From an uncultured Rikenellaceae bacterium (GTDB lineage Bacteria > Bacteroidota > Bacteroidia > Bacteroidales > VadinHA17), in NCBI GenBank assembly GCA_964639725.1, contig CAZXFB010000024.1, positions 1,638-65,637 on the forward strand: 64,000 nt of DNA. The letters run 5' to 3'. A program made the position numbers and the translations under genes. Below are positions 4,575 through 52,410 of this stretch, one piece after another. The notes below the pieces were generated by a model that was not told the origin of the DNA, ran no database searches, and worked only from the letters and a program-made list of their open reading frames with translations. Numbering within the stretch: position 1 is the stretch's first letter; every line of letters begins with the position of its first letter.

Positions 4575-6581
4575 ATGAAAATGAAGCTAATATTTTCGTT
4601 ACTGTTCCTAATAAATACAGTTATTTATTTATCTGCACAGATTCAATATCCAGGCGAATATCCCGGAAAGGCAATGGCAAAAACATTGACTGGAAACAGG
4701 GTAATACTTGAAAATAATCTGATAAAAATGGAATTTGCAGGTGATAAAAACAGAGTTTCAATCATAAGCTTTGAAGATAAAATCACACATGAGGTGTTAA
4801 GCGAGATTAATGCTGCACTTTTTGAGCTGAAACTTACTGATAGCACTATTCTTACTTCAAATGATTTTACCCTTGGGCATTCTCCAGTTATCTCAGATTT
4901 ACCTGTTGATTCACATTCTGAAATCGTGGCGGAAAGAGTGAAGGGAAAAAGATATTCAGCAGATCTTGAAAACCAGAAACTGGGTTTGACCGTTCACTGG
5001 AAAGCAGAACTCAGGGATGGTTCAAATTATATCAGGCAGATATTTTCATTTACCACAAAATACCAGTCAGATATTTCCAGGATTACCCTTTTAAGGCTTC
5101 CTGCTAATTTGCCTGTGAAGAAGGAGGGAACTGTTGATGGTTCCCCAATTACTGTTGGTAAAATGTTCTTTGCTCTGGAATATCCATTGAGTAAAGTGGA
5201 ACTGAAAGATAATTATCTGGTATCGTATCTGCCACGTTTACTTCCTGTTATATCTACAGTATGGGGTACAACTCCGGTCAATCAGTTTCGTCGAGGATTC
5301 CTTTATTATATAGAACGGGAGCGGGCGCACCCCTACAACCAGGTATTACATTATAATTCATGGTATGATATCTCCTGGCATGACAGAAAATTAAATGAAG
5401 CGATATGTCTTGACAGGATCAGGATGTTTGGTGATAGCCTTATAAAAAAGAGAAATGTTCCTTTAAAGGCTTTTCTTTTTGACGATGGATGGGACGATAA
5501 CAAAACCCTCTGGGAGTTTAATTCAGGATTCCCTGATGGTTTTGAAAAATTGAAAACTGAAGCTGAATCATACAAGTCAACAGTAGGAGTCTGGCTGTCG
5601 CCTTTCGGAGGCTATGGGGAAACGAAAAAAGAGCGTCTGGAATATGGAAAGAAGCAGACTCCTCCGTTTGAAACAAATGATAATGGTTTTGCCCTTGACG
5701 GACCTGTATATTTTAAACGATTCAAAGATGTAACCAGCAGTTTCATAAATAAATACGACATCACTATGTTCAAATTTGATGGAGTTGGGGCTGGGAATGG
5801 TGCCGGAATTGCTTACCAGAAAGATATTGAGGCTTTCTTAAAACTTATTACTGAATTAAATGAATTAAAACCGGATCTTTATTTCAGTCTGACTACCGGA
5901 ACATGGGCTTCTCCCTACTGGCTCTTCTATGGTGATAACATATGGCGCGGAGGGGATGATACAAATATGATGGGTGAAGGTTCAAAAAGACAGCAGTGGA
6001 TAACTTATCGCGATGCAGATGTTTATAAAAATGTTGTGAAGGCAGGTCCGCTCTATCCGTTGAACGCCTTAATGACATGTGGAATTTGTATTGCAGATTA
6101 TGGATATCCTGCAGATTTTGATATGAATGACAAGGACATCTCAGATGAAATCTGGTCTTTCTTTGGAACAGGAACAAATCTTCAGGAACTTTATATAAAT
6201 CCGCATAAATTGAATACATCAAACTGGAATTGTCTGGCAGAGGCAAGTCACTGGGCAAAAGAGAATGAGGATATATTGGTCGATGTACACTGGACAGGCG
6301 GCAATCCGGCCAAAGGCGAAATATATGGTTATGCCGCATGGTCACCCCGTAAGGCTACACTGACACTGCGAAATCCATCGAAAGATGAAAAATCGTTTTT
6401 AGTGAATATTGCAGGAATATTCGAGCTCCCTGAATCAATGAAAAGTGAATATCAGTTTTACGATGCCAGGCAAGTGACGTTAAATGCTAAGAAGGAGATT
6501 ATTGCCCAGGGCAGGGTTTTTAACATCATTTTGAAACCATTCGAAGTTAAGGTAATGGATGCTTTCCCGGTCAGACAGTGA
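4575..6581 (+). CDS. Secreted putative glycoside hydrolase (melibiase/alpha-galactosidase-like TIM barrel); exact family uncertain
   Basis: 668 aa with signal peptide MKMKLIFSLLFLINTVIYLSAQ. Motifs LFDDGWDD and FKFDGVG resemble clan GH-D (GH27/36-type) catalytic cores. Confidence 0.45.
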   Translation: MKMKLIFSLLFLINTVIYLSAQIQYPGEYPGKAMAKTLTGNRVILENNLIKMEFAGDKNRVSIISFEDKITHEVLSEINAALFELKLTDSTILTSNDFTLGHSPVISDLPVDSHSEIVAERVKGKRYSADLENQKLGLTVHWKAELRDGSNYIRQIFSFTTKYQSDISRITLLRLPANLPVKKEGTVDGSPITVGKMFFALEYPLSKVELKDNYLVSYLPRLLPVISTVWGTTPVNQFRRGFLYYIERERAHPYNQVLHYNSWYDISWHDRKLNEAICLDRIRMFGDSLIKKRNVPLKAFLFDDGWDDNKTLWEFNSGFPDGFEKLKTEAESYKSTVGVWLSPFGGYGETKKERLEYGKKQTPPFETNDNGFALDGPVYFKRFKDVTSSFINKYDITMFKFDGVGAGNGAGIAYQKDIEAFLKLITELNELKPDLYFSLTTGTWASPYWLFYGDNIWRGGDDTNMMGEGSKRQQWITYRDADVYKNVVKAGPLYPLNALMTCGICIADYGYPADFDMNDKDISDEIWSFFGTGTNLQELYINPHKLNTSNWNCLAEASHWAKENEDILVDVHWTGGNPAKGEIYGYAAWSPRKATLTLRNPSKDEKSFLVNIAGIFELPESMKSEYQFYDARQVTLNAKKEIIAQGRVFNIILKPFEVKVMDAFPVRQ

Positions 6582-6661
6582 AATGGATTCTCTTTATTCA
6601 GGATAATATGACGATTTAAAGTCTTTATGGAGAACAAATTATAGCCTAGATCACATTAAAA

Positions 6662-6677
6662 AGGATAATGTTATCCT
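6662..6677. promoter_or_regulatory. 16-bp perfect inverted repeat (candidate operator) upstream of the hyf-like operon
   Basis: AGGATAAtgTTATCCT read directly from the sequence, about 220 nt upstream of the first gene of the operon. Confidence 0.3.
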
Positions 6678-6710
6678 GATCAATGCAGAATAACTTGCTA
6701 TATTCCGTTA

Positions 6711-6794
6711 CTTCAGAACCGGTATCAATTATAATTATGTAAGATCAGGTAATTCACCCGTTCTTAATTACTTATTCTTCAGAATCAGGTATCA
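6711..6794 (+). repeat. Imperfect direct repeats cttcagaaCCGgtatca / cttcagaaTCAGgtatca, with a third atcaggta core between them
   Basis: Copies lie at 6711-6727 and 6777-6794. A related gatcaggtaattca lies at about 6743-6756. All are in the 315-bp intergenic region before 6897. Confidence 0.35.
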
Positions 6795-6896
6795 CTTTAA
6801 TAACCCTCAAAAATTTAATTCCTGTTATCAAACTATCTTGTAAAGGTTTTTCTTTACTTTGCATCCTGTTTAATTATAGGATGAAATAATTAAAGA

Positions 6897-8921
6897 ATGA
6901 TGGTTTATGAGGGTAGTGAATTAATTGGTCTTATTTTTAAAACAATTGCAGTAATCTTTTTCTCTGGGATATCATCAATACCTTTTGTTCCCGTCAGAAT
7001 CAAACCTGTTATAAGTATTGTCACAGTTCTGCTTGTTGCCCTGATAACAAGTCTTTTAGCTGTTAAAGTCTTTTCCACAGGCGGAATTGATTTTACTCTC
7101 TACTGTGGATCATTCTTTGGCGAAATCCCAATGAGGATTGATGCATTATCAGCCTGGTTTATTCTGATTATTAATTTCACTGCTGCAACCGGTGTGTTAT
7201 ACGGTGCGGGTTACATGAGAGCATCAGATGTTCAGCCATCACTTATTACATTCCATTGGATAATTTATATAATATTTCATTTATCCATGCTATTTGTATG
7301 TATGGTTCAGCATAGTATAGCATTTATTGTAGTATGGGAAATCATGTCTTTGTCCTCGCTGCTCCTGGTATTATTTGATTATACTAATCCAAAAGTACTT
7401 AAAGCAGGTATTAACTATCTTGTACAAATGCATCTGAGTGTAGTTCTTCTCACTATAGCATTTATCTGGGTATATTTCAGAACAGGGACATTTGATTTTA
7501 AAGGTATAGGTGAGTTCTTTGATTCAAATGTCAATATCTGGGTATTTCTGATATTTTTTACCGGGTTTGGACTCAAGGCCGGATTTATCAGCCTGCATAC
7601 CTGGCTACCTCTTGCTCATCCGGCAGCTCCCTCTCATATTTCAGGAGTTATGTCAGGAGTTATTGTTAAGATGGGGATTTATGGCATTTTTCGTATAATC
7701 ACTTTTTTGAAAACAGATTTCCTGGTTTTGGGAGAGATTATTGTCACAATATCATTATTAACAGGCTTGTTTGGCATTATGAATGCTGCAGTACACAGAG
7801 ATTTCAAACGTATGCTTGCCTACTGTACAATAGAAAATATCGGGATCATTGGTATTGGCACAGGATTGGGACTTATTGGCATATCCACAGGACAAAACCT
7901 GCTTACTTTCTTTGGATTCGGAGGAGCACTGCTGCATGTACTTAACCATTCATTATTTAAGTCCTTGCTCTTCTTCTCTGCAGGTTCAGTTTATAAGCAG
8001 ACGCATACCCGCGATATGGACAAATTGGGAGGACTTATAAAAAACATGCCTAAGACTGCAATACTCTTTCTGACAGGTGCAATAGCTATCGGAGGGATTC
8101 CACCTCTGAACGGATTTATCTCAGAATTTTTAATTTATTGCGGAATATTAAAAGGAATAAACTCTGTTGGTATTGCTCTGGTCACATTAATGGTGCTTAC
8201 TTTTGCTGGGATGAGTCTGATTGGTGGGATTTCGATACTTACCTTTACAAAAACATTTGGAACAATATTTCTTGGGACTCCCCGGCAAAAATTGAAACAT
8301 GACCCTGTTGAAGTCCCTTTATTGATGCTAATACCTCAGTACATAATTATTGTTGTAATGTTATTGATTGCCTTTTTACCTGGCTATTTTGTAAACCTCA
8401 TCGGATCAATATTGAATTACAATATCTTTCCTAACATTGGTTATGTGTCTGTTGATCTGACAAGTTACCTGGAAATATTGAGAAGTATCAGTCTGGCTTC
8501 GGTCATATTCATATTTTTGCTAGGCCTTATGTTTACTGTCAGATGGATTCTGATGAAAGGAAAAGAAAATCAGCATGCTTCCACCTGGGGATGTGGATAT
8601 CTGGCACCAAATGAAAGAATGCAATATACTGGTAAATCGTTTTCTAAATCTTTTGGAAAACTTCTTAATTTTATGCTCATAGAGAAGAAAGGGTACGAGG
8701 AAATTAAAAAAAGTGAAACTTTTCCTGTTTCACGACAATACCGTTCCTTTTATCTCGATTTTTTTGAATTCAGGATTATTGATCCGGTTATACAATTGAT
8801 CAACCGGTTTATTAATCTGTTTCAGTTTATACAAAATGGCAAGATCCAGGCTTATGTCATTTATGGTATTGCTTTTATAATTACGATATTCATTGGAACA
8901 GTTTTAAATTTGTGGCATTGA
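6897..8921 (+). CDS. hyfB: HyfB/HycC/NuoL-like antiporter-type membrane subunit, copy 1
   Basis: 674 aa and polytopic. It carries the hallmark WLPLAHPAAPSHISGVMSGVIVKMGIYG, LAYCTIENIGII and the HyfB-type C-terminal extension with TWGCGY. Confidence 0.85.
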   Translation: MMVYEGSELIGLIFKTIAVIFFSGISSIPFVPVRIKPVISIVTVLLVALITSLLAVKVFSTGGIDFTLYCGSFFGEIPMRIDALSAWFILIINFTAATGVLYGAGYMRASDVQPSLITFHWIIYIIFHLSMLFVCMVQHSIAFIVVWEIMSLSSLLLVLFDYTNPKVLKAGINYLVQMHLSVVLLTIAFIWVYFRTGTFDFKGIGEFFDSNVNIWVFLIFFTGFGLKAGFISLHTWLPLAHPAAPSHISGVMSGVIVKMGIYGIFRIITFLKTDFLVLGEIIVTISLLTGLFGIMNAAVHRDFKRMLAYCTIENIGIIGIGTGLGLIGISTGQNLLTFFGFGGALLHVLNHSLFKSLLFFSAGSVYKQTHTRDMDKLGGLIKNMPKTAILFLTGAIAIGGIPPLNGFISEFLIYCGILKGINSVGIALVTLMVLTFAGMSLIGGISILTFTKTFGTIFLGTPRQKLKHDPVEVPLLMLIPQYIIIVVMLLIAFLPGYFVNLIGSILNYNIFPNIGYVSVDLTSYLEILRSISLASVIFIFLLGLMFTVRWILMKGKENQHASTWGCGYLAPNERMQYTGKSFSKSFGKLLNFMLIEKKGYEEIKKSETFPVSRQYRSFYLDFFEFRIIDPVIQLINRFINLFQFIQNGKIQAYVIYGIAFIITIFIGTVLNLWH

Positions 8922-10939
8922 TAAATATACTATTAGCCATATTAATAACAGCAGTAATTGGAATTTTGTCTCTAAAATCGAAAGGCAAAGGGATTATTAC
9001 TTTGATAACTGTTATAGTTACCGGACTGATTACAAGCTTTATAGCAGCAGGATCTCTATTCGGTGAAAGTTATGAAGTACTTCTTTCAGGAACAATTCTT
9101 TTTGGAAAAGTACTCATAAAAATAGATGCACTTTCTGCCTGGTTTATCCTGACTATCAATTTCACAATGATAACGGGAGTTATTTACGGGTTTAATTATA
9201 TGAAAAAATATATCAACAGGAAGAGTGACATCACTCTTCACTGTATAGCCTATTTACTTGTTCAGTTCTCTCTATTAGGTATATGTTCGGTTCAGAATGG
9301 ATTCGTTTTTCTGATATTATGGGAATTAATGGCCATTTCAAACTTTATTCTTGTGATTTTTGAGCACCATAAACCAGAAACAATAAAGGCAGGCCTGAAC
9401 TATATTGTCCAGTCGCATATAAGTATTGTTTTTATTATGATTGGTTTCATCTATGTTGCATATAAAACCGGCAATTACGGATTTGACGCAATTGTCCATT
9501 TCACTGGTAATCAGTCAACTCTTGCAGGAACTGCACTCTTTCTTTGTTTTTTTATTGGTTTTGCCATCAAATCAGGGTTTGTTCCTTTTCATACGTGGCT
9601 TCCATATGCCCATCCGGCAGCACCTTCACATGTTTCAGGAATTATGTCAGGTGTTGTGATAAAAATAGGTATTTATGGAATACTCAGAATGTTATTATTA
9701 ATTAAAACGGATTATACTACAATAGGTTATATTATTCTTTTTATATCTGTTTTTACAGGAATTTATGGTGTTATGCTTGCTACAATTCAGCACGATCTGA
9801 AAAAATTGCTTGCATATCACAGTATTGAAAATATCGGGATAATTGGAATCGGAATCGGAATTGGTTGCATCGGATTGGGTTCTGTAAATAAATGGATGGC
9901 AATACTGGGTTTCACAGGTGCTTTGCTTCATACACTTAATCACTCATTATTTAAATCATTGCTCTTTTATAGTGCAGGAAATGTTTTACAGAAGGCGCAT
10001 ACAGTAAATATTGAACGACTAGGTGGAATAATAAAGCGAATGCCGCAAACTGCTTTTTTGTTCCTGATCGCTGCCATTGCTATATGCGGTCTGCCTCCGT
10101 TAAACGGATTTATTTCAGAATTCATGATATTCGGCGGTTTGTATAACTGGCTTTACAGTGCCAGTCTGATTTCACTTATTGCAACTGTTTTTTCTCTGGC
10201 AGGTATGGTGTTGATTGGTGGTCTGGCATTATTATGCTTCACGAAAGCCTTCAGTATAGTATTTCTTGGAATACCGCGTTCTGATATTCATAATGAGATA
10301 TCTGAAACAGGTTTCTGGCAACTCCTGCCTATGTATATTACAGCCGCCCTGATGATAATCATTGGATTATTCCCATCATTTTTTATTGAGGCCTTACAGC
10401 GTCCTGTTAATCTTTTCACACATCATATCATCTTTAATCTTAATCTGATCAAAGTCGGGGCAATTGATTCACTTCAGGTGATTAGCTGGTTATTTACCGG
10501 ATTGATCGCAATAATTTTATCAGTTTTGGGATTAAGAAAGTATATCACAAGTAATAAGGTTGTTGAGACAGGTACTACCTGGAGCTGTGGTTATCCTGTC
10601 ACGGGTAGCAAACTGCAATATTCTGCCAGTTCTTTTGTCCGTAGTTATGCTAAACTTGCCAAACCACTTTTAGATATTGAAAAAAAAGAAGTAGAGATAA
10701 ATGAAGTTTTTCCATCGGAAAAAAAGTATGAAACAGATACCTATGACAAGATTGAAAGGATCTTCATTGATAAACCTATTAAACTTATAACCAGGATAGC
10801 TGATTTATTCCTTTTTCTCCAGAACGGGAAACTGCAGATTTATATTTTATACGGGATTATTTTTATCACGTCAGTAATTTGTCTGCCTCTAATAGCAGAA
10901 AAGGTCTTAACAATTCTTCATTTTTTAAATAACCTGTAA
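8912..10939 (+). CDS. hyfB: HyfB/HycC/NuoL-like antiporter-type membrane subunit, copy 2 (tandem paralog)
   Basis: 675 aa with WLPYAHPAAPSHVSGIMSGVVIKIGIYG, LAYHSIENIGII and C-terminal TWSCGY. A GTG start overlaps the upstream stop by 10 nt. Confidence 0.85.
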   Translation: MALINILLAILITAVIGILSLKSKGKGIITLITVIVTGLITSFIAAGSLFGESYEVLLSGTILFGKVLIKIDALSAWFILTINFTMITGVIYGFNYMKKYINRKSDITLHCIAYLLVQFSLLGICSVQNGFVFLILWELMAISNFILVIFEHHKPETIKAGLNYIVQSHISIVFIMIGFIYVAYKTGNYGFDAIVHFTGNQSTLAGTALFLCFFIGFAIKSGFVPFHTWLPYAHPAAPSHVSGIMSGVVIKIGIYGILRMLLLIKTDYTTIGYIILFISVFTGIYGVMLATIQHDLKKLLAYHSIENIGIIGIGIGIGCIGLGSVNKWMAILGFTGALLHTLNHSLFKSLLFYSAGNVLQKAHTVNIERLGGIIKRMPQTAFLFLIAAIAICGLPPLNGFISEFMIFGGLYNWLYSASLISLIATVFSLAGMVLIGGLALLCFTKAFSIVFLGIPRSDIHNEISETGFWQLLPMYITAALMIIIGLFPSFFIEALQRPVNLFTHHIIFNLNLIKVGAIDSLQVISWLFTGLIAIILSVLGLRKYITSNKVVETGTTWSCGYPVTGSKLQYSASSFVRSYAKLAKPLLDIEKKEVEINEVFPSEKKYETDTYDKIERIFIDKPIKLITRIADLFLFLQNGKLQIYILYGIIFITSVICLPLIAEKVLTILHFLNNL

Positions 10940-10940
10940 C

Positions 10941-11846
10941 ATGTTAAGTATAATATTAATACTGTTCACCAGCCTTCTTTTCACGGGAATTATTATACGC
11001 ACTAAAAGCGTAGCTTCAGGACGAAAAGGGCCAGGTCTGCTCCAGCCTGTCAAAGATGTGATCAGGTTATTTAGAAAAGGTGCTGTATATAGTGAAACAA
11101 CAAGTATTATTTTCAGGATTGCCTCTGTCATTTATTTTTCTTCAGTTCTTATGGCTTGCACAGTTATTCCTTTTGGCTCCTCAAGAGGTCTGGTAAGTTT
11201 TGACGGCGATTTTATTTTTTTCGCCTATATCCTTGCTTTAGGAAAATTCTTTAGCATAATTGGTGCAATGGATACGGGAAGCAGTTTTGAGGGAATGGGA
11301 GCAAGCCGTGAAGCATTATACTCGATGTTCGCTGAACCTGCTTTTTTTATTCTGATCGGTTCATTTGCATTAATGACAGGAAAGACATCATTTTATGATA
11401 TTTTTTCAACTTTACATCTTGGATCATCAATAACTTACACATTGGGAGGTCTGGCTGCATTCGTACTTATAATGATTACAATGATCGAAAACAGCAGGAT
11501 GCCGGTTGACGATCCTAAAACTCATCTCGAATTAACAATGATCCATGAAGTTATGATTCTCGATAACAGTGGATTCGATCTTGGATTAATACTATCGGCA
11601 GGTTACTTGAAGTTTGCAATGTATGGCGCTATCATTGCGGATTTTTTTATTGGTGGTCTGTCATTGGTTTTTGCTATACCTCTGTTCATTTTGATCCAGG
11701 TATTATTTGCAATAGTTATAGGATTGATAGAATCTTTTATGGCAAGGTTCAGGATGAATCATAATCCGCAATTTATTTTAGCATTGTCATCGGTAAGCTT
11801 CTTAATATTTCTTGGGGTACTGCTGGTTTTGGAAAAATTTGTTTAA
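10941..11846 (+). CDS. hyfC: HyfC/HycD/NuoH-like membrane subunit
   Basis: 301 aa. The N-terminus …RTKSVASGRKGPGLLQPVKDVIRLFRKG… matches the NuoH/HycD signature. It starts 1 nt after the upstream stop. Confidence 0.85.
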   Translation: MLSIILILFTSLLFTGIIIRTKSVASGRKGPGLLQPVKDVIRLFRKGAVYSETTSIIFRIASVIYFSSVLMACTVIPFGSSRGLVSFDGDFIFFAYILALGKFFSIIGAMDTGSSFEGMGASREALYSMFAEPAFFILIGSFALMTGKTSFYDIFSTLHLGSSITYTLGGLAAFVLIMITMIENSRMPVDDPKTHLELTMIHEVMILDNSGFDLGLILSAGYLKFAMYGAIIADFFIGGLSLVFAIPLFILIQVLFAIVIGLIESFMARFRMNHNPQFILALSSVSFLIFLGVLLVLEKFV

Positions 11847-11857
11847 ATATCTGAAAA

Positions 11858-12490
11858 ATGACAAACGTATTATTGATAATATTCATTATTAGTCTTTTAT
11901 ATGTATCAATTGCAAACAGAATTATTACTTATGTAAGAATTCTTGCCCTTCAGGGTTTTATCCTTTTTGGAGTAACATTTCTGCAGTTGCAGGATATTCA
12001 GACCTGGAACCTTGTTCTTATTCTGCTTGAAACTATTGTTTTCAAAGCTGTTGCTGTTCCTATGTTTCTGGGTTATCTGATCAAACGGAACAGAATAACT
12101 CGTGAAACGGAACCATATTTGCCTCACTTTATCTCTCTGATCATTATTACCATGATAGTCGTGATAACAGTATTACTGGCAAATTCAATTCAGGATACCC
12201 ACCTTGATAAAATATTTTTCATTGTGTCATTGTCAACTCTCTTTACCGGCCTCTATTTCATCTCATCAAGGAAAAAGATCATCACTCATGTTATGGGCTA
12301 TCTTATGATTGAAAATGGAGTGTTTATACTTTCCCTGGCTGTCGGAAACGAAATGCCAGGACTTGTGAACCTGGGTATCATGCTGGATGTTTTCGCGAGT
12401 GTATTGATATTGGGCATCTTCCTGAATAAGATAGGAGATGTTTTCAAAGATGTGGATGTTGACCAGCTGAGTAATTTAAAAGATTATTAA
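11858..12490 (+). CDS. hyfE: HyfE-like small membrane subunit (hydrogenase-4 component E family)
   Basis: 210 aa with about 6-7 TM helices. Size and operon position between the HyfC-like and HyfF-like genes match HyfE. Confidence 0.7.
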   Translation: MTNVLLIIFIISLLYVSIANRIITYVRILALQGFILFGVTFLQLQDIQTWNLVLILLETIVFKAVAVPMFLGYLIKRNRITRETEPYLPHFISLIIITMIVVITVLLANSIQDTHLDKIFFIVSLSTLFTGLYFISSRKKIITHVMGYLMIENGVFILSLAVGNEMPGLVNLGIMLDVFASVLILGIFLNKIGDVFKDVDVDQLSNLKDY

Positions 12491-12499
12491 ACACTTTAA

Positions 12500-13930
12500 A
12501 TGATGACTGGAATTTATCTAATAGGTGCTTTTCTGATTGCAGGATTACTTTTTCTTAACCGTAATAACATGGTTAATAATATTCTTGTGATCAGCTTTGG
12601 CATTCTTCAGACAGGTTTTACACTTTATGCCTGTAACAATTATAATAGTCGTGTACTTGAATATTTTACTTTCGATTCACTAGGATTACTACTTCTGATA
12701 ACGTTGAGCATTATTACCATTCCTGCTCTGCTCCACAGTTACCTCTACATTAAGCGTCATGATGAAACACCACAGTCGAGAGCTATTTATTTTTCGGCAA
12801 TGGTTATTCTTATTGCTTCAATTACAGCCGCTTACCTTGCTAATCATATTGCAGTCATCTGGATTTTTACAGAAATGACTACGTTATCTGCTTCGATGTT
12901 AATTTACCATCACCGTAATAAACTTGCCCTTGAGGGAACATGGAAGTATGTGTTTATTTGTGCCATAAGCATAACTTTTGTATTTATTGGAATCCTTTTC
13001 CTGAGTCTCTCACTTCAGCATGCCGGTTCAGATGATCTCTCATTCAGTAACCTTATGGCATACAAGGATAAGCTAAACCCATTCTGGCTCAGACTGGCAT
13101 TCCTCTTTATCTTCACCGGATTTACTGCAAAACTGGGATTAGTCCCTATGTATACTGCAGGGATTGATGCCAAGGATAAAGCACCTGCACCTGCAGGAGC
13201 TTTAATGGCCAGTGTCCTCATGAACCTTGGCTTTGTCGGGATATTCAGGTTTTATGCTGTTATTGCACATACCTCGCTATTTCACTGGGCTAACCTGATC
13301 ATCTTTATTGCCGCTTTCCTTTCAATATTTGTAGCAACTGTTTATATGACCAGGGTTACTAATATAAAAAGGATGTTTGCTTATTCGGGAATTGAACATA
13401 TGGGAATTGTAATGCTTGGAATCGCAGCGGGAGGAGTGGGTTATTATGCTGCAGTTCTACATATAGTGTTGCATGCCTTCATAAAGTCAAGTCTGTTTTT
13501 TCAGTTCAACCAGTTATACAGAACTTTCCAAAGTAAGAGTATTCATCATGTTGGTAATTATTTCAAATATAATCCTGCAGGTGCGATTGTATTATTATTA
13601 GGATTTGTAAGCGCAACTGCAATGCCTCCTTCCGGATTATTTGTAAGTGAGTTCCTTATATTCAGATCACTCTTTGAAGGAAACTATATAATCCTCCTGT
13701 TGGTCGTTCTGTTATTATTGACAATTGTTATCTGGGCTTTTGGAAAGAATATACTCAAGATACTGTTTCTTCCTGTTTCCGGTCTGGACGAAACAAAAAT
13801 TCCAAAAATAAGTCCATGGGAATCACTGACTCAATATCTATTGTTGTTCACAGCTATCTGGTTGGGACTTAATCCTCCTCCTGTTTTTGTCCGGTTAATC
13901 CAGGATGCAGTAAGAATTTTACCAAATTAA
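12500..13930 (+). CDS. hyfF: HyfF/HyfD/NuoN-like antiporter-type membrane subunit
   Basis: 476 aa and polytopic, with MFAYSGIEHMGIVMLGIAAGG and the LHAFIKSSLFF motifs of Mrp/Nuo antiporter-like subunits. Confidence 0.8.
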   Translation: MMTGIYLIGAFLIAGLLFLNRNNMVNNILVISFGILQTGFTLYACNNYNSRVLEYFTFDSLGLLLLITLSIITIPALLHSYLYIKRHDETPQSRAIYFSAMVILIASITAAYLANHIAVIWIFTEMTTLSASMLIYHHRNKLALEGTWKYVFICAISITFVFIGILFLSLSLQHAGSDDLSFSNLMAYKDKLNPFWLRLAFLFIFTGFTAKLGLVPMYTAGIDAKDKAPAPAGALMASVLMNLGFVGIFRFYAVIAHTSLFHWANLIIFIAAFLSIFVATVYMTRVTNIKRMFAYSGIEHMGIVMLGIAAGGVGYYAAVLHIVLHAFIKSSLFFQFNQLYRTFQSKSIHHVGNYFKYNPAGAIVLLLGFVSATAMPPSGLFVSEFLIFRSLFEGNYIILLLVVLLLLTIVIWAFGKNILKILFLPVSGLDETKIPKISPWESLTQYLLLFTAIWLGLNPPPVFVRLIQDAVRILPN

Positions 13931-13931
13931 T

Positions 13932-15431
13932 ATGAGCTATATTAAAATATTTAATCAACAATCCATTCGGCTAAATAAAATTCCGGAGATGGATTATGAT
14001 GTATTTTTTGAAACCAATACATCCTTAATACAGGATCATCCGGAAAGGCATTGTATCATGTATTTTGGTTACAGTGATAAAGAAATGATACATCTTATTT
14101 GTTGTATTGCAGATGATACAGAGCATAATATTCTGGTTTCTTCATCAGTTGTCAAAAGAGATTCCATGCTTAATGCTTTCTCTGCAATAAATCTTTCATT
14201 TGAGAAGTTTGAAAGGGAGATACACGAAAACTTTGGTATATCATATAATGATCATCCATGGCTGAAACCTGTTCGTTACAGTGAAAACAGGACAGAAAAA
14301 TCAGATTTAATCTCTGATTATCCATTTTTCAGTATTGCCAGTGAAGAACTGCATGAAGTGGGAGTAGGGCCGGTTCATGCCGGTATAATTGAACCAGGAC
14401 ATTTCAGGTTTGTTTGTAACGGAGAGCAGATTCTTCATCTTGAAATTCAGTTAGGTTATCAGCATAGAGGAATTGAACAATTATTTCTTGAAAAGAAAAA
14501 ACTAATCCAGCGTGTAGTTTTGGCTGAATCAATCGCCGGAGATAGCGTGATCGGGCATGCATCTGCATTTGCCTATCTGTGGGAGGCTCTTTCCGGTACT
14601 ATTCCCGGACAAGAAATTCTTTATTCAAGAACACTTGCCCAGGAGATTGAAAGAATTGCTATACACACAGGTGATTTGAGTGCAATATGTACCGATGTTG
14701 CTTACCAGCTTGGAAGTTCAGTGTTCGGAAGACTAAGGACACCTGTCATTAATTTCTTTCAGGAATGGTGTGGTAACCGTTTATCCAAGGGATTAATCCG
14801 TGCCGGTTACAATCCATATCCATTTAACAAAATACTTGCTGAAAGACTTAATGAAGTACTTAATGCCTTTGAACCTGATTTTGTTGAAATGAATAGTGAA
14901 CTTTCAAGATTGCCAAGTTCATTATCAAGGTTTGAGAGGACAGGAACTCTCACCTATGATCAGTTATTATCTGTTGGGACTGTTGGAATGTCAGCAAGAA
15001 TGAATTCTCTAAACAGGGATATCAGAATATCTCACCCGTATGGCATATATCAGGAGTTTGGTCACAATCCTGTAATTAAGCACCATGGTGATGTTTATTC
15101 CCGTGTGCAGATAAGAAAAGAGGAAGTAATTCAGTCTATAGGTTATATCAGGCAGATGCTTAATCATATTCCTGATAAAGAAAATACTAATGATCACTCA
15201 CTTAGGCTTGTGCCTGATTCTTTTGCTATCTCCCTCACTGAAGGATGGAGAGGCGAGATATGCCATGCAGCAATAACTGACAGCAATGGTGAACTGCTTA
15301 TATATAAGATTAAGGATCCTTCCTTCCATAACTGGCTTGCTTTGGCATTATCAGTGAGGAATAATGAAATCTCTGATTTTCCAGTTATTAATAAAAGTTT
15401 TGATTTGTCATATTGCGGACACGATCTGTAA
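13932..15431 (+). CDS. hyfG: HycE/HyfG-like NuoC-NuoD fusion (large-subunit homolog) lacking the [NiFe] cysteine ligands
   Basis: 499 aa with a NuoC-like FEKFEREIHENFGISYNDHP and a NuoD/large-subunit-like VGVGPVHAGIIEPGHFRF. The L1 position reads LAESIAGDSVIGHASAFAY, where hydrogenases have …R.CG.C…H. The C-terminus reads SFDLSYCGHDL-stop, where hydrogenases have …DPC..C..R/H. Confidence 0.8.
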   Translation: MSYIKIFNQQSIRLNKIPEMDYDVFFETNTSLIQDHPERHCIMYFGYSDKEMIHLICCIADDTEHNILVSSSVVKRDSMLNAFSAINLSFEKFEREIHENFGISYNDHPWLKPVRYSENRTEKSDLISDYPFFSIASEELHEVGVGPVHAGIIEPGHFRFVCNGEQILHLEIQLGYQHRGIEQLFLEKKKLIQRVVLAESIAGDSVIGHASAFAYLWEALSGTIPGQEILYSRTLAQEIERIAIHTGDLSAICTDVAYQLGSSVFGRLRTPVINFFQEWCGNRLSKGLIRAGYNPYPFNKILAERLNEVLNAFEPDFVEMNSELSRLPSSLSRFERTGTLTYDQLLSVGTVGMSARMNSLNRDIRISHPYGIYQEFGHNPVIKHHGDVYSRVQIRKEEVIQSIGYIRQMLNHIPDKENTNDHSLRLVPDSFAISLTEGWRGEICHAAITDSNGELLIYKIKDPSFHNWLALALSVRNNEISDFPVINKSFDLSYCGHDL

Positions 15432-15448
15432 AACAAAAATTGTCAACA

Positions 15449-16198
15449 ATGTTAAGAACCCTTCAAATAATGTATCATCAGGGAAAACAATATATTCCTG
15501 ACCTGACAAATGCCAAAGTTCCTGGCATTTTCAGGGGACGACCTGAGATAAGTTCCGGAAAAATTGATGAAAAGTTACTGGTTGATATTTGTCCGAATGA
15601 TGCAATTGCTTCTGATCCGGTAAGGATTGATCTGGGCAGATGTGCCTTCTGTGGTGAATGTTCAAGGTGCTTTCCGGAAAAGATACATTTTACTACGGAT
15701 TACAGATTATCTTCAAACGAGAGGGAAAGGTTGATTATTACTGAAGGTATCTTTATGCCTGTAAGTTTAAACCCCGATCTTATCAGAAAAGAGATCCGCA
15801 AGCTTTTCAGTGGTTCACTCAAACTAAGACAGGTTTCTGCAGGAGGAGATAACAGTTGCGAACTTGAACTAAATGCCTGTGGAAATGTCAATTTTGATAT
15901 GGGACGCTATGGTATTGAATTTGTGGCATCACCGCGGCATGCTGACGGAATTGTTATAACAGGACCAATCTCAAAAAACATGGCAGAGCCTTTGCAGATG
16001 ACTTATGATGCCACACCTTCACCCAAAATAATTATACTCGCAGGAACCGATGCAATTAGCGGAGGTATATTTGACGGAACTCCTGCAATAAACAGAAAGT
16101 TCATCAATCTAAATAAAATAGATCTTTATATACCCGGAAATCCTGTGCACCCGCTGACTTTCATCAACGGAGTCATGGATTTGCTGGGGATCAAGTAG
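15449..16198 (+). CDS. hyfI: HycG/HyfI/NuoB-like small-subunit homolog fused to a degenerate ferredoxin-like (HycF/HyfH/NuoI-like) N-terminal domain
   Basis: The likely ATG at 15449 is 17 nt after the upstream stop; the track TTG at 15413 overlaps the previous gene. The NuoB core is FVASPRHADGIVITGP. The cluster positions read VSAGGDNSCELE, AGTDAISGGIF and IPGNPVHP. The N-terminal part carries ICPNDAI … CAFCGECSRCFP. Confidence 0.75.
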   Translation: MLRTLQIMYHQGKQYIPDLTNAKVPGIFRGRPEISSGKIDEKLLVDICPNDAIASDPVRIDLGRCAFCGECSRCFPEKIHFTTDYRLSSNERERLIITEGIFMPVSLNPDLIRKEIRKLFSGSLKLRQVSAGGDNSCELELNACGNVNFDMGRYGIEFVASPRHADGIVITGPISKNMAEPLQMTYDATPSPKIIILAGTDAISGGIFDGTPAINRKFINLNKIDLYIPGNPVHPLTFINGVMDLLGIK

Positions 16199-48534: not shown

Positions 48535-49728
48535 ATGAACAGAATAGACAGAAGAGGATTTCTCCGGACAGGTATTGCAGGTGCTGCAGGTGTAATGACT
48601 CTATCTCCTGCAATGATTAAAGCTGCTGAATCATCACAGGAAAATGATATAATATACCGCACCCTTGGAAAAACCGGACTGAAAATACCTGTAATAAGTT
48701 TTGGGGTTATGCGTGCCGATAATCCTAATCTGTGTAAAGCTGCTTATGAAAAGGGGATTAAATTTTTTGATACTGCAAATGGTTATCAGAATGGTAACAA
48801 TGAGATAATGCTGGGTAATCTGTTTAAGGATTATCCCAGAAATTCTTTTCTTCTTGCAACAAAAGTAAAACCAACCGGTGCGGACAAGGAAGGTAAACCT
48901 TCAGCTCAGACCAATGCCGAAGAATTCCTGCTGAAGTTTAATACAAGTCTTTCACGACTTAAAATGGATTATGTCGACATACTTTATGTTCATGATATAA
49001 GTAATCCTGAAATGCTTGAATATAAGCCCATTATTAATGCAGTAAAGAAACTTAAAAAGGATGGAAAAATCAAATTTATCGGTTTTTCAACTCACAGAAA
49101 TGAACCATTGGTAATTAACGCTGCTGCTGACAGTAAAACATGGGATGTTATCCTTACAACATATAATTTTAAACAGTCCAATATCAGTGAAATGAATAGT
49201 GCCATTAAGAAAGCTGCTGCAGCCGGAATCGGAATTGTTGCAATGAAGACTATGGCAGGTGGAGGATTCCTTGACAAAGAAAAAACAAAACCTATTAACT
49301 CGACTGCTGCCCTCAAGTGGGTTCTTTCAAATTCCGATATAACGACAACTATTCCCGGTATGACAGATTTTGATCAGCTTGATCTAAATACTAAAATATT
49401 AGCTGATATTAATCTTAATGATCAGGAAAAGAATGATTTGGTTATTGCAAGTGCTGAAACTGGTCTGTTTTGTACGGGTTGCAGTAAATGTATACCTGCG
49501 TGTCCCAGAAACCTGCCAATACCTGACCTTATGAGAGCTTATATGTATGCTTACGGGTACTCGAATCCATCGATGGCTTATTCGCTTATCAAAGAGCTTG
49601 GGACATCTGATAATCCATGCGGTGATTGCACATCCTGCGATGTGAATTGCACAAAAAACTTTAGTATAAAGGAAAAGATAGCTGATATTTCAAGACTTGT
49701 TAATGTTCCAGCTGACTTTCTGACTTAG
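48535..49728 (+). CDS. Tat-signal aldo/keto reductase with a C-terminal Cys-rich (4Fe-4S-type) extension
   Basis: 397 aa with Tat signal DRRGFLRTGIAGAAGVMT. The AKR core is LGKTGLKIPVISFGVM…FFDTANGY…YVDILYVHD. The C-terminus carries CTGCSKCIPACP and CGDCTSCDVNC. Confidence 0.75.
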   Translation: MNRIDRRGFLRTGIAGAAGVMTLSPAMIKAAESSQENDIIYRTLGKTGLKIPVISFGVMRADNPNLCKAAYEKGIKFFDTANGYQNGNNEIMLGNLFKDYPRNSFLLATKVKPTGADKEGKPSAQTNAEEFLLKFNTSLSRLKMDYVDILYVHDISNPEMLEYKPIINAVKKLKKDGKIKFIGFSTHRNEPLVINAAADSKTWDVILTTYNFKQSNISEMNSAIKKAAAAGIGIVAMKTMAGGGFLDKEKTKPINSTAALKWVLSNSDITTTIPGMTDFDQLDLNTKILADINLNDQEKNDLVIASAETGLFCTGCSKCIPACPRNLPIPDLMRAYMYAYGYSNPSMAYSLIKELGTSDNPCGDCTSCDVNCTKNFSIKEKIADISRLVNVPADFLT

Positions 49729-49878
49729 AAAGTTTTACATAAAAGGTAAATAAGAATGAGCTCTGCCGGAATACTGGTCAATTATAGGTAGAAATATTTG
49801 CAATTGAAATAAAGTGTTTTTGCCAGAGTTACTCAAGCAGTGTTAGTTGACTCTCAAATCTGAATAAATTATTCTACG

Positions 49879-50724
49879 ATGAAAAATAAGTTATTTATAG
49901 GTTTTGCTTTGTTAGGTCTTTCATTATCGGCATATACTCAGGATTATTCTTTTCCCGAACTGGAAGGTTTTAAAAAAATAACCAAATATCCGGTCTATTT
50001 ACCTGAAAACCTGTGGGATTTTATAAATGGGGCAGCGGATACTTATCTCTCTTATGGTTTTGTTGATCTGCATGTTGCAGAGTACAAAAAGGGTAAAGAT
50101 GTTATTAAACTTGAAATTTACCGCCATAGTGATAATACAATGGCATTTGGTATCTATTCTTCCGAACGCTCACCTTCATTCAGATTTATGAACCTGGGGG
50201 CACAGGGTTATATTACCGATGGTGCAATTAACTTATTTAAAGGAAGCTCTTATGTTAAAATAAGAACCTATTCCAAGAAAGAAAAGACTTTAAGGGCTGC
50301 TGAGACTTTAGCAATGAAAGTTGCTGAATCACTTAGCGGGGAAGCTAAAATGCCATCACTTATCTCCCAATTTCCATCAGAAGGTAAGAGACAAAATGAA
50401 GAGACTTTTATTAATGAGAGTGTTCTCGGACATAAGTTTCTGAATAAAGCATTTAAAGCTGTTTATGATATTGGAACAGACAGTTATTCGGTTTTCATCA
50501 TTGAATGCAAATCTGAAGAAGAAGCTTTAAAAACTGCTTCAACTTATCTTAAATCAGCAGGAATTGACGAGATAGAGACTGGAAACAATAAATATGTTCT
50601 TACTGATGGATATAATGGTACAATTTTTCTGGCAATCGGGAATGAAAAAATTGTTATAATATCCGGTCTCTCTAAAGACCAGTCAGAGGTTGCAGAAAAG
50701 TGTACTTATGAGATACTGAAATAA
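49879..50724 (+). CDS. Secreted hypothetical protein
   Basis: 281 aa with signal peptide MKNKLFIGFALLGLSLSAYTQ. No motif recognised. Confidence 0.45.
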   Translation: MKNKLFIGFALLGLSLSAYTQDYSFPELEGFKKITKYPVYLPENLWDFINGAADTYLSYGFVDLHVAEYKKGKDVIKLEIYRHSDNTMAFGIYSSERSPSFRFMNLGAQGYITDGAINLFKGSSYVKIRTYSKKEKTLRAAETLAMKVAESLSGEAKMPSLISQFPSEGKRQNEETFINESVLGHKFLNKAFKAVYDIGTDSYSVFIIECKSEEEALKTASTYLKSAGIDEIETGNNKYVLTDGYNGTIFLAIGNEKIVIISGLSKDQSEVAEKCTYEILK

Positions 50725-50736
50725 GAGAGACTGGGT

Positions 50737-52281
50737 TTAGGAATACCAGCCTCTTTCTCTGCTGCCTATACCTTTAAGAATTTCACTGGCTGTATTTACA
50801 TTTTCAATAACCTGGAAATCAAACATACCTACGCAGATAAAGTCAGCACCATTTTCAAATGCATAACGGAATCCATCTTTAGGTGTAATAGCGCCGGCAG
50901 CAAGAACTTTAAAAGCGATCCATGGTTTATTTACTCCCTTCATATACTCAATAGTCTTAGAGGGGAAAAGATCCCATATATTGTCGTGATTCTTATTATG
51001 ATCATCTGAATAAGGTCCGATAACACTGTATTCCTCACGATTGGCCTCTGGGTGAGCCGACCAGTATTTATCATGATGCAAAGTCTTTACATAAAAATCA
51101 GCAGGGAGCCCTTCTCTTTCACAAGCCTTAATGGTCTCAATTGAATGAGCCCCCATACCTGCCATTAAACCTTGTTTTTTTATATGATCAATTGCTTTAA
51201 AAAGTTCATCAAATTTGCCATTCATGCAGAATGAGTCACCAACATTTCCCTGGATGTAAACTGCTGTGGCACCACTATCAACAGCTACTTTTATATCTGA
51301 GAAGAAATCTTTTTCAGGTAATATTGCCTGGCATATTGATTGCATATTGCTGTTATATACTTTTTTATATTTGTTGAAAACAGGATAATACCGGGTGACC
51401 ATAAAGTTAGTATTAATACCTGCCTGCTCTGCTAGATAATAAGTTTCTATAATCTTCTTATCATTATTATATGCTTTAAAGAGTGTGTCAGCATATATCA
51501 GGTCCCGGGCATGCGACCATCCTCCGATAAGATTACAACCCATGATCATCTTGGTGACATTAAGGTTCCCGAGTTTACCCTGGGGCAGTTTTCCGGAAAG
51601 ATCTTCCAATCCTTTGTAATCTACTTTTATAGTTGCACCTGATATAGTGTCTGTAGCCGGTTCCGACAGGTGTTTAATAAAGGCACCGGAAAAAATTGCG
51701 AGAACAGGTACTCCTGCTAATCCCTTCAATAATTCCCTTCTTCCGTTACTCTCCGGAACATCAGGTTTATCAGTCATCTCTTCACCCCCTTGTGCAGCAA
51801 TCTTCTTTTTCTTCTTTCTTAATAAATCGAGTCCGAAAAACTGACCAGATCCGGTAATTGCGAGAAATGCAAGTGCAAATAGTTCAATAAGGTTTTTATT
51901 TACTACCAAATAATTGCCTTCAGAAGGAGTTCCGAAACTGAAATCACTAAAAGGAGGATATGCTACATAATATAAGGCCAGAAGTGCTACACCGCTCCAC
52001 GAGGCAAACCTGGTGAAGAGTCCAAGTATTAGCGCAAGACCAATTAGAATGAGTCCGAAAGTATTTGCATTATCAATAATCCACATGGATGTGTCACCAG
52101 ATGCCATCAGTCGGAAGAGATCCCCAAAAATCCACCTAGAGCCCTCAAGATAGGCTTTGGCTGTCCATGTAGTATTAACCAGTTTGCTCATCCCTTCAAA
52201 GAGGAAATGCCATCCTATAACTATTCTAAGCATGGCAAGTAACCATGACGCAAATTTGTTTTTAATAAAAATTGAACCCAT
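50737..52281 (-). CDS. Fusion protein: N-terminal DoxX/DoxD-like membrane domain, Lys-rich linker, internal Tat-like/TM segment and an unassigned ~310-aa domain
   Basis: 514 aa. The DoxX-like part is LLAMLRIVIGWHFLFEGMSKL… with 4 TM helices. It is followed by LRKKKKKIAAQ and RRELLKGLAGVPVLAIFSGAF, then a soluble domain (KLGNLNVTKMIMGCNLIGGWSHARDL … GADFICVGMFDF). Confidence 0.6.
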   Translation of the reverse strand: MGSIFIKNKFASWLLAMLRIVIGWHFLFEGMSKLVNTTWTAKAYLEGSRWIFGDLFRLMASGDTSMWIIDNANTFGLILIGLALILGLFTRFASWSGVALLALYYVAYPPFSDFSFGTPSEGNYLVVNKNLIELFALAFLAITGSGQFFGLDLLRKKKKKIAAQGGEEMTDKPDVPESNGRRELLKGLAGVPVLAIFSGAFIKHLSEPATDTISGATIKVDYKGLEDLSGKLPQGKLGNLNVTKMIMGCNLIGGWSHARDLIYADTLFKAYNNDKKIIETYYLAEQAGINTNFMVTRYYPVFNKYKKVYNSNMQSICQAILPEKDFFSDIKVAVDSGATAVYIQGNVGDSFCMNGKFDELFKAIDHIKKQGLMAGMGAHSIETIKACEREGLPADFYVKTLHHDKYWSAHPEANREEYSVIGPYSDDHNKNHDNIWDLFPSKTIEYMKGVNKPWIAFKVLAAGAITPKDGFRYAFENGADFICVGMFDFQVIENVNTASEILKGIGSRERGWYS

Positions 52282-52410
52282 TTATTTTCAGTTATTATGA
52301 TTTGGTAATTAAACTTTTTAAAGCTATAAAACTTTTTGAAATAAATGCTTTATCATTTTTTAAACGTACCTGATATATCCCGGAGTATCTGATAATGCCA
52401 TTTAAACATA

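Follow-up and report, generated by a model that had tools for sequence, protein, structure and literature searches.

We analysed a 64,000-nt stretch of contig CAZXFB010000024.1 from an uncultured Rikenellaceae bacterium, here called the window, and followed up an operon of seven genes, all on the + strand, at 6897-16198. Unless a locus label precedes them, coordinates are positions in the window. The operon resembles the energy-converting hydrogenase-related (Ehr) gene clusters and comprises the following genes:

6897-8921, + strand: HyfB-like antiporter-type subunit 1 (EhrA-1-like), 674 amino acids (aa), with a C-terminal TWGCGY tail
8912-10939, + strand: HyfB-like antiporter-type subunit 2 (EhrA-2-like), 675 aa, with a GTG start and a TWSCGY tail
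10941-11846, + strand: HyfC/HycD/NuoH-like membrane anchor, the E-channel subunit, 301 aa (Pfam NADHdh, 1.8e-34)
11858-12490, + strand: HyfE-like (NuoK-type) small membrane subunit, 210 aa
12500-13930, + strand: HyfF/NuoN-like antiporter-type subunit, 476 aa (Pfam/NCBIfam)
13932-15431, + strand: NuoC-NuoD/HycE-like large subunit without a NiFe site (EhrL-like), 499 aa
15449-16198, + strand: small subunit, a fusion of a NuoI/HycF-type ferredoxin domain and a NuoB/HycG-type domain (EhrS-like), 249 residues

The first two genes overlap by 10 nt, and the following junctions are gaps of 1, 11, 9, 1, and 17 nt. These positions and this spacing, taken from our list of open reading frames (ORFs), agree exactly with those given in an earlier note on the same DNA. 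An in-frame TTG at 15413, upstream of the ATG of the small-subunit gene, would yield a protein of 261 aa; we placed the start at the ATG at 15449 because the homologues are 248-250 aa long and align from there. The database gene call for this small subunit is 242 aa long and begins seven codons late relative to the homologues.

Searches of Pfam and NCBIfam gave the same family assignments for all seven products as the earlier note had proposed, and none of the seven attains an NCBIfam equivalog cut-off. HyfB-like subunit 1 matched Pfam Proton_antipo_M (2.9e-51) and, under the family cut-off, the NCBIfam hydrogenase 4 subunit B model (1.7e-143); its top PDB matches, MbhH (3.6e-53) and HycC (5.7e-53), were nearly tied. 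The two HyfB-like subunits are 43% identical to each other, and both carry the motif WLP.AHPAAPSH.SG and the TWGCGY/TWSCGY tails, as had been noted. The best PDB match of the HyfC-like subunit was HycD (7z0s_D, 9.8e-25), and the HyfE-like subunit matched the NCBIfam hydrogenase 4 membrane subunit (5.8e-21) and Pfam Oxidored_q2 (3.7e-05). The large subunit matched Pfam Complex1_49kDa and Complex1_30kDa, with no NiFeSe_Hases match in the same Pfam scan; its PDB matches were HycE (2.1e-29), MbhL (2.6e-28), Nqo4 (6e-20), and MbsL (1.3e-8). For the small subunit we found Pfam Oxidored_q6 (2.1e-19), an NCBIfam NuoB match, weak NuoI/HycF-type matches at the N terminus, and PDB matches to MbhJ (1.7e-22), HycG (2.1e-19), and MbsJ (5.2e-9). 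The closest solved structures are the Escherichia coli formate hydrogenlyase (FHL; 7Z0S) and P. furiosus MBH (6CFW), with complex I lower and MBS lowest among those listed.

To locate former metal ligands, we read ligand positions from alignments to solved structures. FHL numbering was anchored at H188/D192/E193, C241/C244, and C531 (PDB chain numbering is native +12), and conservation was assessed in 80 Bacteroidota large subunits and 77 small subunits from independent genomes. Two stretches of the large subunit correspond to the motifs that hold the NiFe site in hydrogenases:

14526-14558, + strand: former L1 NiFe motif ESIAGDSVIGH, the two Cys replaced by A202 and S205, with D204 invariant
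15396-15431, + strand: former L2 NiFe motif SFDLSYCGHDL plus the stop codon, the two Cys replaced by S493 and G496

In the alignment, CGIC of HycE faces AGDS, and DPCYSC of HycE faces DLSYCG. The position of HycE C241 is occupied by A202 and across the family by Ala, Thr, or Ser, with Cys in none of the 80 sequences; that of C244, S205, is Thr or Ser in 77/80 and Cys in one. C531 and C534 of HycE correspond to S493 and G496, which are Ser and Gly, respectively, in 79/80 each. C495, the sole Cys of the L2 region, is off-register and unconserved (Cys in 48, Ser in 25, and Ala in 6 of the 80). The protein stops at L499, straight after the L2 motif, and this lack of a C-terminal extension argues against HycI-type processing. 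The quinone site has been replaced as well: Tyr87 of Nqo4 corresponds to G203 and His38 to I153, both invariant. Overall, 40% of the large-subunit positions are at least 95% conserved.

In the small subunit, one predicted cluster site is retained and another is lost:

15590-15661, + strand: retained [4Fe-4S] site, C48-P49 ... C65-x2-C68-x2-C71, with an N6b-type ligand pattern
15848-16141, + strand: former proximal (N2) cluster positions, D134, C137, D201, and N231, at the places of the Cys of MbhJ/HycG

The N-terminal 110 residues hold exactly four invariant Cys, C48, C65, C68, and C71, each present in 77/77 sequences; C74 of the window protein is unconserved, and the other three motif-1 Cys, which are present in relatives from other phyla, are absent. 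In the 2x[4Fe-4S] ferredoxin fold, one cluster takes its ligands from the final Cys of motif 1 and the leading three Cys of motif 2. We take the retained four-Cys pattern to be that of N6b in Thermus thermophilus Nqo9, the cluster adjoining N2. At the N2 positions, D134 and N231 occur in 77/77 each, D201 in 76/77, and C137 in 70/77; the C137 position is Thr or Val in two distant relatives (L085 and L087, loci described below), and in another sample, of 47 small subunits, fewer than 90% have this Cys. An AlphaFold2 model of the small subunit had a mean pLDDT of 53, its alignment being shallow, with residues 30-110 confident (pLDDT 81-92). A Foldseek search with the N-terminal domain of this model returned as its top ten complex I NuoI chains plus HycF (7z0s_F), each with a probability of 1.00. 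These data lead us to conclude that the small subunit is a HycF/NuoI-HycG/NuoB fusion with a single predicted [4Fe-4S] site. The fusion itself had been recognized in the earlier note, which described the N-terminal part as a ferredoxin-like remnant; a mere remnant does not fit with four Cys for one [4Fe-4S] site that are invariant in 77/77.

The loss of the NiFe and proximal-cluster ligands, which had first been read by eye, was confirmed by these alignments, as was the absence of the NuoD quinone Tyr, whose position is G203. A frameshift, a sequencing or assembly artefact, or a register error as the source of the missing Cys was excluded, as about 80 independent genomes show the same replacements. 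A quinone reductase of the complex I type was also excluded, there being no equivalent of N2, Tyr87, or His38. Together, the ligand positions show that the predicted complex is neither a hydrogenase nor a complex-I-type quinone reductase, and that the canonical wire, which would lead from the entry cluster through N6b and N2 to the pocket, is broken at both ends as far as its ligands predict.

The replacements at the former NiFe site are found across a large family. The large subunit has more than 8000 database matches, the best of them at 75-80% identity in Bacteroidota metagenomes and metagenome-assembled genomes (MAGs), and a scan of one genome per species found a relative in at least 587 species-level genomes. 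The best 80 of these, at 61-79% identity, are almost all labelled Bacteroidota; most are environmental Bacteroidales (Prolixibacteraceae, Paludibacter, Lentimicrobiaceae), alongside Chitinophagales, Saprospirales, and one Flavobacteriales, and two MAGs are labelled otherwise, as Acidobacteriota (L019) and Omnitrophica (L031). Wherever a locus is long enough to hold the complete operon, its genes stand in the order B1-B2-C-E-F-G-I; the scripted match to the first HyfB gene was made in only 39/80. An exhaustive search of 1.84 billion cluster representatives yielded 4280 relatives at E <= 1e-3, of which 447 passed E <= 1e-30. Among the top 150 representatives (31-47% identity), nearly all have the L1 motif E-x-[IV]-[ASC]-G-D-[ST]-x3-H and the L2 motif SF[ND]LSY[CSA]G-x-DL followed by a stop, and CGxC together with CYSC occurs in only five. 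In a neighbour-joining distance tree of 103 full-length representatives, the five Cys-bearing sequences form a clade of their own, apart from the 98 Cys-less ones. Named members of the family include Ca. Magnetoovum (Nitrospirota), Sulfurospirillum, Spirochaetia, and Longimicrobiales; the Cys-bearing relatives are planctomycete. Eight distant loci, Cys-less (L081-L083 and L085-L088) or Cys-bearing (L084), carry six genes in the order B-C-E-F-G-I and have a fused small subunit.

A comparison of the small subunits revealed a graded loss of iron-sulfur clusters across these lineages:

Nitrospirota (L081), Sulfurospirillum (L082), and Melainabacteria-type (L086): N2 and the first and second ferredoxin clusters all kept
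Spirochaetia (L088): N2 with 3/4 Cys, both ferredoxin clusters kept
A metagenomic locus (L083): N2 lost, first and second ferredoxin clusters kept
P0482-type: N2 kept, first ferredoxin cluster lost, second kept
Window clade with L085 and L087: N2 and first ferredoxin cluster lost, second kept

The window clade has carboxylates at N2 positions 1 and 3, and the four N2 positions of L087 are D, V, E, and A. In a profile-based sample of 121 small subunits, all twelve Cys are present in 108, and the Bacteroidales ones are of the single-cluster type. Judged by these Cys patterns, the Bacteroidota form is a single-cluster variant, and its loss of N2 is specific to the variant and not general to Ehr. 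The large-subunit pocket motif is identical in lineages with three, two, or one cluster, and the simplest reading of this constancy is that the pocket is independent of electron delivery.

The residues associated with ion translocation and coupling present a different picture. In the antiporter-like subunits we followed the Glu of transmembrane helix (TM) 5, the Lys of TM7, the Lys of TM8, the His/His/Lys set of TM11, and the Glu of TM12. All of them are at least 95% conserved in HyfB-like subunit 1 (E148, K227, K258, H347/H351/K355, and E410) and in HyfB-like subunit 2 (E138, K220, K251, H340/H344/K348, and E403). The HyfF-like subunit conserves E125, K211, H321/H325/K329, and E384, and has Asn at the TM8 Lys position. 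E58, E152, and E165 of the HyfE-like subunit are invariant, as are E124/E132/E183 of the HyfC-like subunit, which correspond to the E-channel residues E130/E138/E189 of HycD. The ND1-loop triad E199/E201/E203 of HycD is represented by K193/H195/E197 (residues 193-203, window 11517-11549), invariant in the Bacteroidota family; in E. coli HycD the triad is essential, its mutation lowering H2 production by 99%.

The large subunit, which together with the small subunit forms the predicted two-protein cytoplasmic head, contains one further feature:

14367-14411, + strand: β1-β2 coupling loop GPVHAGIIEPGHFRF, in which H149 is HycE H188 and E154 is HycE E193

This loop is invariant in 80/80 sequences apart from V/I exchanges and is identical in the Cys-bearing relatives. 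The FHL structure paper names HycE E193 as the proton donor of the β1-β2 loop and R478 as the canopy Arg (PMC9474812). HycE E193, H188, R478, H284, E437, and R395 correspond to E154, H149, R440, H245, E398, and R356, all invariant. The window keeps the canopy Asp, D529 of HycE, as D491, but 59/80 sequences have Asn there.

The tail TWxCGY ... QY..SF ... F.F.QNG..Q.Y..YG is kept in both HyfB paralogues (8469-8918 and 10487-10936). By analogy, the probable counterpart of the HyfB tails is the ND3-like C-terminal extension of HycC, in which a Cys is conserved. A single-sequence PDB search with the TWGCGY tail returned nothing, and a PDB profile search gave weak matches to the C terminus of MbsH' (E 0.56) and to MrpA (E 8). 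Only one ND3-like loop would be expected at the interface between the HyfC-like subunit and the head, yet both HyfB copies retain the tail.

Between 25% and 46% of positions per protein are at least 95% conserved, the highest share being that of the HyfC-like subunit (46%). Against four close relatives, with dS saturated, pN/pS was 0.04-0.22 for all seven genes, which places each of them under strong purifying selection; the HyfE-like gene is the most conserved of the operon (0.04-0.065). Conservation of this kind shows that the predicted complex is functional and under selection, with its putative ion-translocation and coupling parts intact.

The surroundings of the operon were searched for partner genes and for signals of regulation, beginning with the region upstream:

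6582-6896, + strand: upstream intergenic region, the presumed promoter region, a 315-nt gap after an unrelated secreted glycosidase-like gene

Promoter and terminator scans gave only generic promoter-like matches, near the shuffled expectation, and Rfam found no RNA element anywhere in the window. The gene before the gap (4575-6581, + strand) encodes a 668-aa protein with a signal peptide, no Pfam match, and an FLFDDGWDD motif recalling GH27/GH36 glycosidases; it never recurs beside the operon in relatives. The flanks of 57 loci hold no conserved gene for electron input or for a partner, and the only recurrent neighbour is a divergent Crp-family regulator (cNMP_binding plus HTH_Crp_2), found at a median of 148 bp upstream in 8/57 loci (for example L053:2107-2844, minus strand, 245 aa). 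The contexts of the eight distant loci contained no partner gene either. Among the window ORFs of at least 150 aa and four small ORFs located in gaps, we found no hyp, hycI, hycB/hyfA, fdhF, CO dehydrogenase, focA, or hyfR gene, in line with the absences listed in the earlier note; Hyp/HycI maturation genes are also absent from the 64-kb window and from the sampled flanks of related loci.

Several other arrangements were seen along the way. Possible redox genes lie at 48535-53910 of the window and encode an aldo/keto reductase fused to a 4Fe-4S dicluster domain, a DUF6599 protein, a 514-aa DoxX-domain membrane protein, and a 499-aa multihaem cytochrome c (NapC/NirT plus cytochrome c7-like). 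In L085 and L087, which are single-cluster, six-gene relatives of 46% and 43% identity, a chromate-transporter-family gene pair lies directly 3' of the small-subunit gene on the same strand (L085:11396-12462 and L087:9436-10514). A Draconibacterium MAG carries a membrane-only B'-C'-E'-F' set (L035:12398-17401; 673, 304, 209, and 473 aa) without head genes; this second set directly follows the seven-gene operon on the same strand and is followed by thioredoxin-like and GT2 genes. An inverted partial second set lies upstream of the operon in L003 (L003:7-2698, minus strand), and L044 has three HyfB-like genes. Gene content of this sort suggests that the membrane module may exist without a head of its own.

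By its gene content and ligand pattern, the predicted complex is a member of the known Ehr class. This class is said to have been defined bioinformatically by Coppi in 2005 and by Marreiros et al. in 2013. The operon is of the group-4 type, combines HycE/NuoD-, HycG/NuoB-, HycD/NuoH-, and antiporter-like subunits, and lacks the NiFe CxxC pairs; HycE and MbhL score above NuoD as matches of the large subunit, yet the protein belongs to a separate Cys-less clade, the "4f" label being that of the literature, where Ehr is placed near the group 4f hydrogenases. With ligand loss family-wide, a Cys-less clade, and conserved pumping residues, the earlier view of a hydrogenase-derived, non-hydrogenase, Ehr-like complex with three antiporter-like subunits is sustained. 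The suggestion that the system was undescribed is not: Ehr is a named class, and a Geobacter ehr cluster with the same seven-subunit make-up has been described.

That cluster, GSU0739-45 of Geobacter sulfurreducens, encodes EhrA-1, EhrA-2, EhrB, EhrC, EhrD, EhrL, and EhrS (PMC7894505). In cells grown on formate, all its subunits were present at higher abundance, and the same paper states that its "physiological role has never been investigated" (PMC7894505). In a 2026 paper, the Geobacter ehr cluster counts as non-functional and relaxed selection is assumed (PMC13194489). In Nitrospirales, Ehr occurs in about half of the genomes, its "function remains unknown," and it was not induced by H2 in N. 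moscoviensis (PMC12342949). It has also been reported in Nitrospira, Melainabacteria, Margulisbacteria, Methylacidiphilum, Mycobacterium tuberculosis (Rv0082-87), and ammonia-oxidizing archaea, and further literature on the class exists (PMC10284858, PMC6349859, PMC10432482, and PMC6728331); papers up to 2025 still state that the function of Ehr is unknown. Our literature search found no structural or functional study of Ehr, no description of EhrS/EhrL ligands, and no paper on the Bacteroidota form.

We favour, tentatively and at somewhat less than an even chance, the reading that the complex is a redox-independent, gradient-coupled translocator of protons or cations, in which the head gates the E-channel by protonation or ion binding and the cluster is structural or sensory. 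The antiporter-like channels and the E-channel would carry protons, or protons and a cation, across the membrane. The remodelled pocket, predicted to be rich in carboxylates and hydroxyls (E199, D204, S/T205, S493, Y494, and D498 of the large subunit; D134, D201, and N231 of the small subunit), could become protonated or bind an ion and in this way gate or trigger the E-channel through the conserved loops, with no delivery of electrons. The complex would then operate much as an Mrp antiporter does, with a regulatory or coupling head retained, and the lone [4Fe-4S] cluster would be structural or redox-sensing. Speaking for this reading are the fixed ligand replacements, the conserved pumping residues and proton pathway, the purifying selection on the operon, an Fe-S chain that looks dispensable where the pocket motif is kept, the lack of a conserved partner gene, and the headless B'-C'-E'-F' paralogue set after the operon in L035. 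A bolder version, about which we are more doubtful, is that this is the first machine of the complex I superfamily with an electron-transfer-free Q-module head, whose pocket binds protons, a cation, or a non-redox ligand and drives or gates the three antiporter modules, the cluster acting as a redox or O2 sensor.

Several observations weigh against translocation by a redox-independent head. An Mrp-type antiporter needs no cytoplasmic head, yet 40% of the head positions are at least 95% conserved, and the intact proton path into the pocket suggests that chemistry which consumes or releases protons persists there. The invariant cluster Cys (77/77) are as compatible with a working redox centre as with a structural site. 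Elsewhere, Ehr heads with three clusters occur across large evolutionary distances, arguing for electron transfer at least in those lineages, and the rise of the Geobacter Ehr on formate hints at a link to redox metabolism. In addition, the coupling interface is remodelled, with the canopy Asp changed to Asn in 59/80 and the ND1-loop triad to K/H/E, and the operon has no MrpE/F/G-type or MbhA-G-type subunits, those tied to Na+ in Mrp and Mbh.

Of the alternatives, the one that survives best is a redox-driven ion pump, which we regard as a serious contender although on balance unlikely. Here, ferredoxin or flavodoxin would reduce the single cluster, which would pass electrons to a substrate or to a non-Cys cofactor at D134/D201/N231 or in the pocket. 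The change of charge would then power the three antiporter-like subunits and the E-channel, in the manner of complex I, MBH, and MBS. Such a pump agrees with the four invariant cluster Cys, with the intact β1-β2 loop Glu and proton-delivery path to the pocket, and with the fixed, non-random replacements at the N2 site, and three pumping modules imply a sizeable energy input. The comparison with other phyla points the same way, since their Ehr heads have a full three-cluster chain ending beside the same pocket motif, as does the greater abundance of the Geobacter subunits on formate. However, by analogy with complex I geometry, an N6b-type cluster without N2 should be too far from the pocket, and the N6a-type surface entry cluster is gone as well. 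One N2 position varies (C, T, or V), and the D, V, E, and A of L087 would form no plausible cluster or redox-metal site. The NuoD quinone Tyr and His are absent, and a donor or acceptor module is encoded nearby in none of the 57+ loci.

Improbable, although not negligible, is non-redox chemistry in the pocket coupled to proton flux, in analogy to cyanobacterial NDH-1/Cup and DAB complexes, which hydrate CO2 vectorially. Such chemistry would fit the conservation of pocket and proton-path residues without redox cofactors, and antiporter-like modules coupled to non-redox chemistry have a precedent, for example DAB2. The hosts probably include succinate and propionate fermenters that require CO2. 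Nevertheless, the pocket has no conserved carbonic-anhydrase Zn set (His3 or Cys2His), H497 being variable in the wider family; no Cup or DabA homologue was found, and the gene context yields no candidate substrate.

A decaying, non-functional hydrogenase relic, which is how the Geobacter KN400 paper treated ehr, would explain the lost catalytic metal ligands and has that 2026 paper in its favour (PMC13194489), but we consider it very improbable. It is contradicted by pN/pS values of 0.04-0.22 in all seven genes, by the same gene order in about 80 species at 61-79% identity, by the 25-46% of positions per protein that are at least 95% conserved, with the replacement residues themselves invariant, and by relatives in at least 587 species-level genomes, with thousands of further copies in metagenomes. 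The conservation in Bacteroidota argues against the non-functional view there.

Finally, a genuine [NiFe] group-4 hydrogenase (Hyf/FHL-2-like), as annotation pipelines name it (the JGI names are "Ni,Fe-hydrogenase III large subunit" and "small subunit") and as the best solved-structure matches, FHL and MBH, might suggest, is refuted at the sequence level and has virtually no chance of being correct: the NiFe Cys set is absent in 80/80 sequences and the proximal cluster is absent, there is no endopeptidase-type C-terminal extension and no NiFeSe_Hases match, the window holds no hyp, hycI, hycB, or fdhF, electron-input partners are not conserved in the 57 loci, and the Cys-bearing relatives form a separate clade.

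Ehr has been known from genomes for about 20 years and in many phyla. The Bacteroidota form is very common in environmental Bacteroidota by the genome and metagenome counts given above. New here are the single-cluster variant, the fixed carboxylates at the N2 site, the graded loss of iron-sulfur clusters, and the map of intact proton and coupling residues. The cluster chain has shrunk from three to one, yet the pocket motif, the pumping residues, and most of the proton pathway remain constant, which raises the question whether the Ehr head is a redox site at all. If the head is indeed non-redox, the complex would be a natural system in which the conformational coupling of complex I can be studied apart from redox chemistry. 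There is also a practical side, as routine misannotation as Ni,Fe-hydrogenase or NADH dehydrogenase can inflate calls of H2 metabolism in metagenome studies. The pipeline names of the relatives numbered P0004-P0120 and P0299-P0417 are Ni,Fe-hydrogenase III large or small subunit, NADH dehydrogenase subunit, and NADH:ubiquinone oxidoreductase, all contradicted by the residues.

Compared with known systems, the operon resembles each in part. Mrp shares MrpA/MrpD-type antiporter-like subunits with conserved channel residues, but it lacks NuoH-, NuoD-, and NuoB-like subunits as well as any Fe-S cluster, and the operon has no MrpB/E/F/G homologues; the absence of the Mrp subunit set weakens the notion that the complex is an Mrp, not that it works like one. 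For MBS/Mbx, MbsL and MbsJ are the weakest of the listed matches, and MBS has three clusters where the window operon has one cluster site. Complex I has in common with the window operon the NuoB, C, D, H, K, and L/M/N-type subunits, the antiporter Lys and Glu, and the E-channel, and NuoD also lacks the four NiFe Cys. In contrast, the window operon is without N2, Tyr87, His38, NuoE/F/G, NuoJ, and a separate NuoA or NuoI, and its large and small subunits score lower against NuoD/NuoB than against HycE/MbhL and HycG/MbhJ.

E. coli FHL and Hyf share the β1-β2 loop EPGHFR, most of the proton-pathway and E-channel residues, and a HyfE-like subunit, and Hyf has the same number of antiporter-like subunits, three (HyfB, HyfD, and HyfF). 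The window operon departs from FHL in having no NiFe site, proximal cluster, HycB/HyfA, FdhF, HycI, or Hyp, and in the fusion of its HycF- and HycG-type parts. Its HyfB-like subunits keep the TM7 Lys, unlike HycC, the ND1-loop EEE has become K/H/E, and the canopy Asp, which the window retains, is mostly Asn in the family. The Cys-bearing hydrogenases nearest to the family, for example that of the planctomycete "Ca. Wujingus" (P0284/L084), are about 35% identical and agree in the six-gene B-C-E-F-G-I order, in the fusion of Fer4 and NuoB parts in the small subunit, in the β1-β2 loop, and in the SF.L.Y context of L2. They differ in carrying CGxC, CYSC, all N2 Cys, both ferredoxin motifs, and a Pfam NiFeSe_Hases match, and in forming a separate clade in the distance tree.

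The closest correspondence is with Ehr itself, with which the operon shares the Cys-less large subunit and the antiporter-like membrane subunits, the Melainabacteria and Nitrospirota relatives having the same pocket motifs. The sampled Nitrospirota, Campylobacterota, and Melainabacteria relatives have six genes, one HyfB-like subunit, N2, and both ferredoxin clusters, in contrast to the two HyfB-like subunits and one cluster of the window form. In its published composition, the Geobacter ehr cluster matches the window operon, with two HyfB-like subunits, one HycD-like, one HyfE-like, and one further antiporter-like subunit, together with a large and a small subunit.

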